From the IMG/VR virus record IMGVR_UViG_2874920711_000001: DNA of 40,896 nucleotides, one strand, 5' to 3'. This DNA is from a virus (taxonomy: Duplodnaviria; Heunggongvirae; Uroviricota; Caudoviricetes). This document shows positions 32,720 through 37,352 of the stretch, in pieces; the stretch's first letter is position 1; each line of letters opens with the position of its first letter. Below the pieces are notes generated by a model. The model was not told where the DNA came from. It searched no databases and worked only from the letters and a program-made list of their open reading frames with translations. Both the position numbers and the translations under genes were made by a program.

Positions 32720-33541
32720 GTGGATATTGCCTGCGGTCGCTCCTCTGCCCCGATGCCGCAGCGTGTAACAGAAGAAGGAAAACAGGATGATGAAGAAAAA
32801 CCGCAACCATCTTGCGCAATGGCAGATGAACAGGCAACGGCTGAAACAGTGGAACCGGATGCAACTGAACATCATCAGGACACGCAGCCGCTGGATGCTC
32901 AGTCACAGGTAAATGCTGTTGATGCGAAATATCAGGAACTGCGGGCAGAACTCCATGAAGCCCGGAAAAACATTCCGCCCAAAAATCCTGTCGATGCAGA
33001 CAAATTACTGGCTGCCTCTCGCGGAGAATTTGTTGAAGGGATTAGCGACCCGAATGATCCGAAATGGATTCCCGGTCATCATATCTCCTCAAATGAAGTC
33101 AAAAAAACGGAAAATGAAGTGCGACAGACTGAAGATAAACAGCACCAGAACAGCGAACCGGAGGAGGGAACACCCTGCAATCAGACTGGCGAGGATAACT
33201 GCCCTGACTGTGGCGCGGTGATGGGAGACGCAACTTATCAGGAAACTTTTGACGAAAAAAAACCAGATGAAGCACAGGAAGAAGAGCCGAAGAAAACGGA
33301 AAAAGCTGATGATTTGTTACCGGAGAACGCTGGCAGCGATCAGCATAATGATAGCAATAATGAAACTGGCGAAGATGAACTCAACTGGAAAAAACAGGTG
33401 TTGATTGCGGCGGTTTACGGTTTATGTGCGAATCCTGCGTGCATAGCCTATGCGCCTGCAATCCCTGACATCGCAATGATGATTGCCAACAAGCTTGAAA
33501 ATTTTGGAGTGACCAGTGATGAGCGCTTACCCGATTTTTGA
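32720..33541 (+). CDS. Hypothetical highly acidic protein with hydrophobic C-terminal segment; start uncertain
   Basis: Asp/Glu-rich, low-complexity body; C-terminal stretch [35 protein letters not shown]; overlaps the gam start. Confidence 0.4.
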
Positions 33542-33815
33542 TCGTATTGAAGAAATGGCATGGGCTCGCCACTACCAGCAGATCGTTCGTGAAGAAAAAG
33601 AAACGGAACTGGCGGACGACCTGGAAAAAGGTCTGCCTCAGCACCTGTTTGAATCGCTCTGCATCGACCATTTGCAACGCCACGGTGCCAATAAACAGGC
33701 AATCAGCCACGCATTTGATGATGATGTTGAGTTTCAGGAGCGCATGGCAGAACACATCCGGTACATGGCTGAAACCATTGCCCACCACCAGGTTGATATT
33801 GATTTGGAGGACTAA
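33516..33815 (+). CDS. gam: Gam-like host-nuclease (RecBCD) inhibitor
   Basis: 99-aa product with WARHYQQ...[21 protein letters not shown]...[17 protein letters not shown]...IAHHQVDID, closely resembling lambda Gam as I recall it. Confidence 0.8.
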
Positions 33816-33820
33816 AATCT

Positions 33821-34579
33821 ATGGCGCTTTTTCAACGAGCAATAAACACACAGGCCTATCTAAAAGCAGGAATTATGGGGTTTGCTGGCGACGGCAAAAC
33901 CTACACAGCAAGCGAACTGGCTATTGGTCTGGTAATGCTTATGCGGCAACGGGGAATTGAAGCTGGTAACCGCCCGGTAATGTTTCTGGACACAGAAACA
34001 GGCTCTGACTGGGTTAAACCCCGCTTTGATGCGGAAAATATCGAATTATTTACGGCAAAAACCCGCTCGTTTGTTGATCTGCTTGAAGCCATTAATGAAG
34101 CGGAAAGCAGCGGTTCCGTAATGATCATCGACTCCATCAGTCACTTCTGGACCGGATTATGCGACGAGTATGCCAGACGCCGAAACCGTAAACGAGGACT
34201 GGAATTTTCAGACTGGGCGTGGCTCAAACAGGAGTGGCGACGCTTTACCGATCGATTTGTTAACAGTCAGGCGCACATTATTATGTGCGGGCGTGCAGGA
34301 TATGAGTATGACTTTTTCGAAGGTGATGATGGCAAACGCCAGTTGGCAAAAACCGGTATAAAAATGAAAGCAGAAACAGAAACCGGTCAGGTGTGGCGCA
34401 CCGCCAGAATACTAAAAGATCGCTCCACCCGTATTGATGGACAGGTATTTTCAAACCCAACATTTAAAAACTTTCTTCCTCATATCGAGTTTCTTAACCT
34501 GGGAGGTGAACACCTCGGCATCGATACCTCACGGGATAACAGTGAATTATTTGCCAACGACGGTACACCGACATGGTGA
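33821..34579 (+). pseudogene. RecA-like P-loop ATPase (Sak4/AAA_24-like), 3' end cut by IS600; stop created at the junction
   Basis: Walker A GFAGDGKTYTA and Walker B VMIIDSIS; the IS600 terminal TGA supplies the stop. Confidence 0.6.
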
Positions 34580-34619
34580 GGTGTACTGGCAATAGCGGAC
34601 ACTACCATTTGTTCTTTTT

Positions 34620-35438
34620 TTAAGCAGCCATCTGATGATATTTTTCCCTGAAGGCTGCCGGGGAGATATTCCCCAGACGAGAGTGACGACGCTGACGATT
34701 GTAGAAAATCTCAATGTATTCCCGTATTACTGAGATGGCTTCATCCCGGTTATTAAAACGATAGTGGCTCAGGCTCTCATTTTTCAGCGTTCCCCAGAAG
34801 CTTTCCATCGGAGCGTTGTCGTAACTGTTACCTTTACGCGACATTGATGTTTTCAGACCAAACTGCTCCTGTATGACCCGGTAATCGTATGCGCAGTACT
34901 GTGAACCTCGATCAGAGTGGTGGATTAGCCCGGCAGGTGGGCGCTGGCTCCTGAGCGCCATAAACAGGGCTTTACCTGTCAGCTCTTTTGTCATGCGCTC
35001 TCCCATGGCGTAGCCGACAATTTCGCACGTATAAACATCTTTGATGCCAGCGAGGTACAACCATCCCTCCTGTGTGGCAACATACGTCAGGTCCGCCACC
35101 CAGACCTGATTTGGTGCTGTAGGAGCGAACGTCTGGTTCAGCAGATTTGGCGCAACTGGCAGATTGTGGTTCGGGTTCGTAGTCGCTCTGAACTTGCGTT
35201 TCTGCTTACAGCGTAGCCTTAGCTCCTTACGAAGACGTGCCAGTCGGTCACGACCAACGATGATGCCATTCTCTGCCAGCTCCGTCTGGAGCCGCCGGGT
35301 TCCATATGTTTCGCGAGTGCGGATATGTGCCACCTTAATCTCCAGTTTTAGCCGCTCATCACTTTGTTTTCTGTCTGAGGGTTCATGCTGTACCCGGTTG
35401 TAATAACCGCTCCTGGATACACCAAATACCTGACACAT
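34620..35438 (-). CDS. IS600 OrfB
   Basis: 272-aa ORF, intact 3' end. Confidence 0.85.
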   Translation of the reverse strand: MCQVFGVSRSGYYNRVQHEPSDRKQSDERLKLEIKVAHIRTRETYGTRRLQTELAENGIIVGRDRLARLRKELRLRCKQKRKFRATTNPNHNLPVAPNLLNQTFAPTAPNQVWVADLTYVATQEGWLYLAGIKDVYTCEIVGYAMGERMTKELTGKALFMALRSQRPPAGLIHHSDRGSQYCAYDYRVIQEQFGLKTSMSRKGNSYDNAPMESFWGTLKNESLSHYRFNNRDEAISVIREYIEIFYNRQRRHSRLGNISPAAFREKYHQMAA

Positions 35439-35515
35439 CGCTTCAATGGGAAATTGTTGTCGCCATTGTTCGATTAACGCGTATTTTTCAGCGACTCCTG
35501 TGCAAAATACGCTGT

Positions 35516-36735
35516 TGTAGATTCAATCTGTCAATGCAACACCCTTTCAATTATCTCTTTCGGTGTTTTGAACTTCAGTGTCTTTCTCGGTCTGTTGTTT
35601 AGCTGAGCAGCAACCAGATCTAGTTCATGTTGAGTATATTGGGCAAGACATGTCTTTTTAGGAAAGTACTGCCGAATTAGCCCATTTGTGTTCTCATTTG
35701 TTCCCCGCTGCCAAGGACTCTGAGGATCGCAGAAGTAAACTTTAACGCCGGTGCTGACAGTAAATTCTAGATGTCTGGCCAGTTCCATTCCTCTGTCCCA
35801 TGTCAGTGATTTTCTGAGTTCTGACGGTAAACTCAGGAATTTGTCGGTAAGAGCCTGATTTACTGAGACAGAATCTTTGCCCCTGAGTCTAAGGATGATC
35901 GTATAACGTGATTTTCGGTCTACAAGTGTGGCTATATGAGAGTTTTTTGTACCTGAGACTAAATCGCCCTCCCAATGCCCCAGAGAGCGTCTGTTATCGA
36001 TATTTCGGGAACGTTCGTGAATTGGTGTTCCGTTCACTATGTTAATCGTACCTCTTTCGCCTTTGCGGGTATGACGCCTGCCATGGCGAAGGCTATGCGA
36101 CCGTCGCAGATGCTGTATATTCAGGTGGTGTAGCGCTTCACGGCTACGAAAGTACAGCGTTTTATAAATTGTCTCAGGTGATATTCGCAGCGTTTTTTGA
36201 CGTGGTTTTGTTCGCCTTAACCATCCTGATATTTGCTCTGGAGACCATTTCATCTCCAGCTTTTCCAGAACAAGCTTTCGCAATGGTAAATTTTGATCCA
36301 GTAAGCACGGTTTTGGCCTTTTCGCCATTCTGTTGGCTCGGTTATTAGCATCAACAGCTTTGTAATAGCGTCTGCCCCGATTACGCTGAACTTCACGTGA
36401 GATCGTCGAAGGACTGCGATTCAGCGCAGTAGCTATCGCACGAATGCTCATTTTGGCTGACAAACCAGCTCGTATCTCCTCGCGCTCAGACAGTGTCAGG
36501 TGAGCTACAGCCCGCTTACGCTCATGGGGTTTTATGCCGCCAGTATCCCTTAACATAGTGAAGATCGTTCCGGGTTTTGAACCCAGGATATTCGCTATTT
36601 CACTGAAGCCTGTTCCGTTCTTCCATAGTTCAAAAACAGAGGCTTTTTCCTCTGCTGTAAATGTTCGTCTCATTCAAAAAACCTCCGCAACCCCATGTTT
36701 TCACATAACTGTTGCGTTGACCAATTGAATCTACA
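35516..36735 (-). mobile_element. IS30 copy (1220 bp) nested in IS600 orfA
   Basis: Ends TGTAGATTCAAT...; this copy lacks the mid-gene frame break but has a C-run contraction at the extreme 3' end of the transposase gene. Confidence 0.8.
35531..36673 (-). CDS. IS30 transposase (380 aa), essentially full length; last residues differ from the other two copies
   Basis: Single ORF covering the whole protein; ends EIIERVLH versus EIIERGVALTD in the other copies. Confidence 0.8.
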   Translation of the reverse strand: MRRTFTAEEKASVFELWKNGTGFSEIANILGSKPGTIFTMLRDTGGIKPHERKRAVAHLTLSEREEIRAGLSAKMSIRAIATALNRSPSTISREVQRNRGRRYYKAVDANNRANRMAKRPKPCLLDQNLPLRKLVLEKLEMKWSPEQISGWLRRTKPRQKTLRISPETIYKTLYFRSREALHHLNIQHLRRSHSLRHGRRHTRKGERGTINIVNGTPIHERSRNIDNRRSLGHWEGDLVSGTKNSHIATLVDRKSRYTIILRLRGKDSVSVNQALTDKFLSLPSELRKSLTWDRGMELARHLEFTVSTGVKVYFCDPQSPWQRGTNENTNGLIRQYFPKKTCLAQYTQHELDLVAAQLNNRPRKTLKFKTPKEIIERVLH

Positions 36736-37062
36736 GTTGCTTTTTTTAATATATCTCGCTCAAGGCGAGCTTCATTTAACGCCTTACGCAGTTGCAGAAT
36801 TTCAGATTCCAGTTCAGCCACCGTGCGGGAACCAGGAGTACCGAGCCCTTTTCTGGCGGCGGTAACCCATTGTCCTAAAGTGCCTTCAGGAAGGGATAAT
36901 CGGGAAGCGCCTTCACTGATCGAAAGTTGATTTTCAAGAACCGTTCTGACAGCTTCGGCTTTGAACTCTTTAGAGTAACGTTGGGTTTTTCTGCTCATTA
37001 TTAGCTCCTTCTGATGCCATTCTATTTCAGGAAGGAGTGTCCGTTAAACTCAGGCTACCTCA

Positions 37063-37352
37063 TGGCTAAAAGAAAAGCGTGCAAAAGAAATCGCACTTGA
37101 TGAAATTATCGAGTTGCTCAACAAGCACCATGGGGCACCAGTAACGACGCCAAACGCGCAAAAGCTGATTTGCTGGAAAAAACATTCACCTCCCGCTCAT
37201 GGGAAAGAATCAAAGGTATGGACTGGCCGACAATCAAAGCTGGTCGTAATGCACTATGGATTGAACTGGAAGGCGTTGAATATGCATTCCCGGATCCACA
37301 AACACAAAACGAAACGCAACAAGCAGGATACGATGAGAATATTCCGGTGTAA
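37063..37352 (+). pseudogene. 3' remnant of the Sak4-like ATPase gene downstream of the IS600/IS30 insertion
   Basis: Sequence after the TGG repeat continues the ATPase frame; ORFs 37114-37380 and 37170-37352 overlap here. Confidence 0.35.

Follow-up and report, generated by a model that had tools for sequence, protein, structure and literature searches.

In a 40,896-nucleotide stretch of DNA from a virus of the Caudoviricetes (IMG/VR virus record IMGVR_UViG_2874920711_000001; the whole stretch is hereafter called the window), a gam gene is followed by an ATPase gene that has been cut by an insertion sequence (IS). We consider it probable, with moderate confidence, that this locus is what remains of a phage recombination module of two genes, in which a lambda-type gam and an ATPase of the AAA_24 (Sak4) family with a RecA/Rad51 fold were swapped into a Rac-type prophage, and that the ATPase serves as an annealase in intact relatives. 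The copy in the window, which comes from a Shigella dysenteriae chromosome, is an ordinary, IS-riddled and decayed prophage module and by itself matters little. The intact gene is part of a large and strongly conserved branch of AAA_24/Sak4 with an extra conserved domain.

Anatomy of the gam–ATPase locus and its lesions

A sequence-only reading of the window had described a Gam homologue followed directly by a RecA-like P-loop ATPase, in the position that lambda gives to bet and exo, and this description stands. Gam matches Pfam family PF06064 with 186.8 bits (cut-off 25), covering profile positions 1–97 of 98, and is 81% identical to residues 41–137 of lambda Gam; the DNA between 33561 and 33817 is 86.8% identical to lambda gam. 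By these matches, it is a true lambda-type Gam. The exact protein is common in Shigella and E. coli, as judged from the occurrence of identical proteins. The open reading frame (ORF) lister takes a GTG at 33516 as the start of gam, with an alternative start at 33519 and the end at 33815. Homology to lambda DNA stops at the gam stop codon, from where lambda has bet, and the ATPase ORF begins 5 bp past the end of gam. Orientation, position in the pL operon and the 5-bp spacing to the next gene are thus the same as in the lambda Red module (gam-bet-exo), and gam itself is 81% (protein) and 87% (DNA) identical. In contrast to Red, the module in the window lacks Bet and Exo, encodes no nuclease, and has the RecA-fold ATPase after gam.

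The intact ATPase gene is 1098 bp long and encodes 365 residues, for example WP_001173292.1 of E. coli strain CFSAN029787. In the window, it is interrupted after codon 270 (between 34576 and 34577) by a composite of IS600 and IS30, and the ORF listed at 33821–34579 ends in a TGA formed by the first three bases of IS600. The sequence-only reading had recognised this insertion as the third such composite in the window, flanked by a TGG target duplication, and had placed a 3′ remnant of the gene at 37063–37352. The composite lies at 34577–37062 with TGG on both sides, the remnant is confirmed and runs to the genuine stop codon, and all features are at or within 3 bp of the positions given. What had gone unnoticed were two further lesions of the ATPase gene, a 54-bp deletion and a deletion in the G-run at 37132–37135, as well as a RecE remnant at 31602–33541.

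Upstream of the insertion, the aligned DNA is identical to that of the CFSAN029787 orthologue, except for a 54-bp gap. Intact genes contain two direct repeats of AGAAACCGGT, 54 bp apart, only one of which is kept in the window. The deletion is in frame and takes out residues 190–207 (YEPSILIQMEKQMNIETG), and the lost segment contains the invariant E191, the near-invariant P192 and M198, and a core β-strand (residues 194–202), as seen in the family alignment and the structural model. The deletion is repeat-mediated and strips an invariant strand from the ATPase core. The 54 bp are retained in all related loci that were aligned to the window (L001, which is CFSAN029787, and L009, L011, L012, L048 and L062). 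In the 3′ remnant, a run of five G has been shortened to four, and the resulting −1 shift splits the remnant over two frames.

When the IS and one TGG are removed in silico, 34576 joins 37066 in frame, the rebuilt frame overruns the expected end, and the conserved C-terminus sits in a second frame. Removal of the IS, by which the sequence-only reading had proposed to rebuild the full gene, fails to restore it because the 54-bp and the 1-bp deletions persist. A near-identical intact counterpart of the rebuilt gene is present in 10 of 5426 complete E. coli genomes; no match at the DNA level was found in sequenced phages. The exact truncated product of 252 residues is deposited as WP_284525827.1 (Shigella dysenteriae) and recurs on two contigs; thus, both the insertion and the 54-bp deletion are real in that lineage. 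Neither of these two lesions is in doubt, unlike the deletions in homopolymer runs. The ATPase gene of the window has been inactivated by the IS and the 54-bp deletion, and apparently by the frameshift as well, and with this gene dead only Gam could still work.

The same ATPase gene has been hit elsewhere. In a Shigella-like genome (L048; IMG/VR UViG 2537561620_000017, from position 6826 onward), an IS1 has inserted into it 20 bp further downstream than the IS600 of the window, and the match to the ATPase gene in E. coli VL40 likewise covers an IS1. These IS1 copies and the IS600 of the window are independent IS hits on one gene, and the IS600 insertion at this site is shared by none of the related loci examined.

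DNA homology to the Rac prophage of E. coli K-12 runs up to ~33374, breaks off, and returns at ~37372, from where it continues through rcbA. Therefore, gam and the ATPase gene form a cassette that was swapped into a Rac-type backbone. The view that Gam and the ATPase stand in place of Bet and Exo accordingly holds in part: the Gam–ATPase module is present, but what it displaced is RecT, RalR and the nuclease domain of RecE, not Bet and Exo. Only the last 8 codons of ralR are left (37373–37396). The same swap is found in E. coli CFSAN029787, without the lesions.

The recE remnant upstream of the cassette is 78.6% identical to residues 40–585 of K-12 RecE, and the homology ends where the nuclease domain begins; the C-terminal 5′–3′ exonuclease domain (K-12 residues ~588–866) is absent from the window. 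The remnant matches PF06630 (Exonuc_VIII) with 132 bits and phrog_607 over positions 1–622 of 883. It consists of two ORFs (31602–32672 and 32720–33541), separated by the loss of 1 bp from a C-run at ~32646–32648, relative to CFSAN029787. In the latter genome, the RecE N-terminus is an unbroken ORF of 646 residues (L001, 3781–5721), which continues past the swap junction for 55 residues of unrelated sequence and stops just inside gam; its product is a RecE derivative without the nuclease. 'RecE-2' proteins without a nuclease domain have been mentioned by Zheng et al. (PMC12315714). The locus is a clean example of the swap of a Rec module, with the junction exactly where the nuclease domain of RecE begins.

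Table 1. Features of the locus, by position in the window (a dot marks features without strand)
Feature	Position	Strand	Basis or remark
RecE N-terminal remnant, Rac-type, no nuclease domain	31602–33541	+	PF06630, phrog_607, homology to K-12 RecE
Swapped-in cassette (gam and ATPase, later IS)	33375–37372 (approx.)	+	takes the place of recT, the 3′ part of recE, and ralR except for its last 8 codons
gam, intact, 98 residues, predicted lambda-type RecBCD inhibitor	33519–33815	+	PF06064, identity to lambda Gam
ATPase pseudogene, 5′ part	33821–34576	+	codons 1–270 of the intact 365-residue protein, without the 18 lost to the deletion
Junction of the 54-bp in-frame deletion	34378–34387	+	single AGAAACCGGT left
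TGG target-site duplication, left copy	34574–34576	.	read from the sequence
IS600::IS30 composite, 2486 bp	34577–37062	-	IS600 arms at 34577–35515 and 36736–37062
IS30 within IS600, near 3′ end of orfA	35516–36735	-	ends read from the sequence, GT duplication
TGG target-site duplication, right copy	37063–37065	.	read from the sequence
ATPase 3′ remnant	37066–37352	+	codons 271–365, C-terminal helical domain and acidic tail; true stop codon at end
rcbA (DUF1187) homologue, first backbone gene past the cassette	37395–37580	+	92% identity to K-12 RcbA; PF06688, 124 bits
RalA antitoxin small RNA gene, full length, inside the rcbA homologue	37398–37576	-	Rfam RF02694, 207 bits (gathering score 170)

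Family and fold of the intact ATPase

The intact orthologue matches PF13479 (AAA_24) with 52.5 bits, and gp007 of Cronobacter phage phiES15 does so with 53.7 bits, at a cut-off of 27; the Sak4 protein of HK620 itself scores 30 bits, below the intact orthologue. AAA_24 has been equated with the Sak4 family in the literature (PMC8093625). Among the PHROGs, a weaker match of the ATPase is to phrog_124, the 'Sak4-like ssDNA annealing protein' family (E 1e-8). The family is large, with 4333 clusters (at 50% identity) found at E ≤1e-3 and 494 at E ≤1e-30, and nearly all of the best family matches align from residue ~1 to 320–360. Members from Enterobacteriaceae, Pseudomonas, Achromobacter and other Betaproteobacteria are 60–87% identical.

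An alignment of 63 sequences shows invariant residues at K15, G20, G25, K26, E59, G61, W110, K136, R158, E185, E191, K217 and R219. S105 and D104, the latter in Walker B, are almost invariant. The conserved catalytic set comprises G25 and K26 of Walker A, E59, R158, E191, K217, R219 and D104. The protein has the elements of a RecA/Rad51-type core, namely both Walker motifs and a catalytic glutamate. The AlphaFold model of the intact ATPase has a predicted local distance difference test score (pLDDT) of 93.6, and its best structural matches are RAD51 paralogues (RAD51D, XRCC3, XRCC2 and RAD51C), RecA and a solved Sak4. On the basis of this model, a RecA/Rad51-fold core is confidently predicted for the intact ATPase. 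It does not qualify as a bona fide RecA/UvsX recombinase (PF00154). Searches with NCBIfam and PADLOC gave no match for the ATPase, Gam, the RecE N-terminus or DUF1187, and no sign of a defence system.

Residues ~233–365 form a conserved helical C-terminal domain of ~130 residues, which is found across the 494 clusters at 50% identity. A Red-beta-like C-terminal domain, as published for some Sak4 proteins, was considered and rejected (hhalign probability 0.2%). An acidic [DE][DE][IVLM]P-x motif (DENIPV, DEDIPQ, EDVPY or DDEIPF) forms the C-terminus of about 25 of 40 family members and is comparable to the tip DDDIPF of the single-stranded DNA-binding protein (SSB); many others end in EAA, DAA or AAA. 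These C-termini were read, for example, at positions 7051–7098 of L001, in L039 and L067, and at 37320–37349 of the window.

Sak4 proteins have been described as 'core-only RecA' proteins, and Lopes et al. admitted only those shorter than 290 residues (PMC2896510). At 365 residues and with an additional conserved domain, the ATPase is not a core-only protein, and we therefore file it as a long variant in the AAA_24/Sak4 superfamily, not as a classical Sak4. Compared with known Sak4/AAA_24 proteins (Lactococcus phi31 Sak4, HK620 HkaL, Pseudomonas PA73 gp032 and ORF016 of a S. aureus phage, PDB 8rc5), it shares the AAA_24 match, the RecA/Rad51 core, the Walker A and B, TE.G, IDS and YEP motifs, and the place that recombination genes occupy in the early operons of temperate phages, sometimes with SSB directly after it. 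It differs in length (365 residues compared to 220–245), in the helical C-terminal domain and, often, the acidic (I/V)P tail, in having its own PHROG (phrog_1366), and in its weak profile similarity to the tested Sak4 families. Thus, 'Sak4-like', the term used in the sequence-only reading, is justified by the AAA_24 match and the RecA core, and fails with respect to the core-only architecture. Similarity at the profile level to the two experimentally tested Sak4 families, HK620 (22% probability) and PA73 (54%), is weak but collinear.

Function of the module and alternative explanations

We surveyed the neighbours of the ATPase gene at 40 diverse loci from IMG/VR and from genomes, taking two genes on each side as called by a crude longest-ORF gene caller. 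Gam is directly upstream of the ATPase at 6 of the 40 loci, corresponding to six of the seven enterobacterial lineages sampled, at a distance of 0–6 bp. An SSB is encoded within two genes downstream at 7 (by Pfam) or 8 (by phmmer) of the loci, often with overlapping stop and start codons. RecT, Erf and YqaJ families are absent from the neighbours; because the survey is crude and spans two genes, this absence of annealases applies to the immediate neighbourhood and, by annotation, to all of phiES15, and not to every genome. No ssb gene lies beside the ATPase in the window or in its enterobacterial relatives.

The most instructive relative is phiES15, a complete, UV-induced lambdoid phage of 40 kb, whose ATPase is 85% identical. 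Its early-left operon reads kil-gam-ATPase-DUF7740-methyltransferase-xis-int, and Bet, RecT, Erf and Exo are annotated nowhere in its 40 kb. In phages of this type, the ATPase is the sole candidate recombinase beside the RecBCD inhibitor. The relatives surveyed lie in early-left operons of prophages. Salmonella prophages have the order KilR-Gam-ATPase. In Achromobacter prophages, the ATPase is followed directly by SSB, with stop and start codons overlapping, and in a Pseudomonas prophage by a helix-turn-helix protein and a methylase.

Lambdoid Rec modules are contiguous clusters of an anti-RecBCD gene and an annealase gene (PMC12315714), and the position and partners of the ATPase fit this pattern. 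According to Bobay et al., a RecBCD inhibitor without a recombinase is found in no lambdoid phage (PMC3784561), a rule which fits the ATPase as the recombinase beside Gam. The arrangement resembles the P22 class of Rec modules (anti-RecBCD gene and annealase, no nuclease and no SSB; Zheng et al. 2025, PMC12315714) in combining a RecBCD inhibitor with one putative annealase, although P22 uses Abc2 and Erf. A Rad51/RecA-type class of annealases was recognised in lambdoid phages in the same study, which lists 34 combinations of sequence types (PMC12315714).

From fold, family and gene order, we infer that the intact ATPase is probably an ATP-dependent annealase or mediator that acts in partnership with Gam or SSB. 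Gam would block RecBCD, and linear and rolling-circle phage DNA would survive. The ATPase, with ATP, would bind single-stranded DNA (ssDNA) and anneal complementary strands or mediate recombination, acting with an SSB that is phage-encoded in some relatives and presumably the host's in the enterobacterial ones. It would thereby supply the annealase function given elsewhere by Bet, RecT or Erf, in concatemer formation and repair. If it proves to be an efficient annealase, the family would enlarge the small set of RecA-fold annealases, and could provide a recombineering tool for Proteobacteria.

Several observations weigh against this reading. The closest PHROG of the ATPase, phrog_1366 (E 1e-79), carries the label 'unknown function', and we know of no assayed member of the long AAA_24 subfamily. 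Profile comparisons by hhalign with the Sak4 families of HK620 (21.7% probability, E 1e-3) and PA73 (54% probability, E 1.3e-4) are weak; in favour of the Sak4 assignment, the PA73 alignment covers 141 columns, with collinear blocks at the Walker A GKT, TE.G, IDS, HI.M and YEP. Pairwise BLASTP against the HK620 and PA73 Sak4 proteins is not significant (E 0.11 and 0.06), and we therefore relied on profiles and fold. Searches of PDB sequences, by the protein alone or by the profile of its family, returned nothing significant and only P-loop-level matches, which are uninformative (SRP54 at E 0.003; RadA and 8rc5 at E 0.06–0.4). No informative structural match was found for the C-terminal domain. 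SSB adjacency, at ~20% of the loci, is far below the up to 80% of sak4 genes reported beside ssb (PMC5928155). Finally, relative to E. coli CFSAN029787 the window has single-base deletions at ~30237–30239 (Rha gene), ~32646–32648 (recE remnant) and 37132–37135 (ATPase remnant). All three are in G or C homopolymer runs and each breaks an ORF; they may be true decay or artefacts of the assembly.

Other roles for the ATPase have to be weighed against an annealase. It may be a Rad51-paralogue-like accessory that helps host RecA onto SSB-coated ssDNA or stabilises it there, with its acidic (I/V)P tail mimicking the SSB tail and docking on host SSB-binding proteins. The prominence of RAD51D, XRCC3, XRCC2 and RAD51C among the structural matches, the SSB-like acidic ends of ~25 of 40 members, the need of HK620 Sak4 for the six C-terminal residues of its SSB (PMC5928155) and the lack of a phage SSB beside enterobacterial members all speak for such a role. 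Yet the tail motif is missing from the longer members (469–582 residues) and is also present in members with an adjacent SSB, and HK620 Sak4 did not stimulate strand exchange by RecA in vitro (PMC5928155); we regard an accessory of this kind as rather unlikely. Less likely still, in our estimate, is a RecA-superfamily protein that works outside recombination, as a replication helicase, a helicase loader or a DnaB/KaiC/FlaH-type motor, and that came to the early-left position by mosaic accident, with Gam acting alone. Such proteins do appear among the structural matches (KaiC and FlaH at ~13, DnaB-type helicases at ~11), but they rank below the recombinases; a better match to a non-recombination family, which the sequence-only reading had named as the result that would speak against it, was thus not found.

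The pairing of Gam and ATPase could also be a chance mosaic junction without functional coupling, the two genes being adjacent in a few enterobacterial prophages. Gam alleles beside ATPases that are 84–99% identical do diverge strongly (187 bits with PF06064 in the window compared to 62 bits in phiES15), and the ATPase has no Gam neighbour outside Enterobacteriaceae. However, Gam is found 0–6 bp upstream in 6 of 7 enterobacterial lineages despite this turnover of alleles, which argues for selection on the arrangement, and contiguity of anti-RecBCD and annealase genes is usual in lambdoid Rec modules (PMC12315714). We consider a chance junction improbable. An annealase role may also be extended, speculatively and with similarly low probability, to the idea that the long AAA_24 family (phrog_1366, with thousands of prophage members) is a one-protein recombination system, in which a Sak4-like core is combined with the helical domain and an SSB-tail-mimicking acidic (I/V)P tip that would recruit nucleases or helicases of the host that are clients of SSB (RecJ, ExoI, RecQ). 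If this were true, recombination-dependent replication could proceed with only Gam and the ATPase, without an exonuclease or SSB of the phage's own.

Insertion sequences, prophage backbone and RNA genes

The composite that interrupts the ATPase gene has imperfect terminal inverted repeats (TGAGGT.../...ACCTCA). Its IS600 portion, of the IS3 family, encodes OrfB (34620–35438) and OrfA (36630–36998), both on the minus strand and both matching NF033516, and thus has the terminal inverted repeats, orfA and orfB, and 3-bp target duplication of IS600. The IS30 within it encodes a transposase (NF033563, 276 bits), and has terminal repeats and a 2-bp duplication. RefSeq annotates identical DNA as 'IS3-like element IS600' and 'IS30-like element IS30'. 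Of 5426 complete E. coli genomes, 997 carry at least 80% of the composite.

The three copies of the composite in the window are 99.7–100% identical, the other two being located at 6033–8518 and 23324–25807 (minus strand). Plain IS600 copies are present at 802–2065 and 17808–19987 (the second one interrupted), and match composite positions 1–941 and 2160–2486. As IS30 is inserted close to the 3′ end of orfA in IS600, the composite cannot make the OrfAB transposase and would have to move in trans, presumably mobilised by an intact IS600. The presence of three near-identical copies within 41 kb indicates that the composite transposes as a unit, despite the disrupted orfA/orfAB.

The wider window is a lambdoid or Rac-like prophage. 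A P-loop gene (GKPGTGKN) on the minus strand at the left is read as a putative DnaC-like helicase loader. It is followed on the plus strand by a helix-turn-helix repressor-like gene, DUF1391, Rha, YdaE, the cassette region, xis and int. The RecE N-terminus, rcbA/RalA (92%), DUF1391 and YdaE are shared with the RecET region of the K-12 Rac prophage (recE-recT-ralR-rcbA-xisR-intR), whereas RecT, RalR and the nuclease domain of RecE have given way to gam and the ATPase, and the integrase is of another type and is interrupted by an IS630-family element. This element (38042–39192; NF033545, 165 bits) lies within the integrase gene (37934–~39899), and related loci are continuous there. RalA is an orphan type I antitoxin, its toxin gene ralR having been lost in the cassette swap.

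Further RNA genes were matched elsewhere in the window. Matches to isrK and the C4 antisense RNA are located at 30119–30306 (plus strand), upstream of the Rha-type regulator gene, and a second set at 17665–17749 and 19944–20046 (minus strand), together with a match to the c4 a1/b1 target sites; this suggests two prophage regions with P1/P7-style c4-ant immunity cassettes. The small RNA genes SraC/RyeA and SdsR/RyeB are located at 40290–40434, just past the integrase end of the prophage. The Shigella small RNA CssrB is found at 2079–2261, and a cluster of four tRNA genes at 16541–16848.

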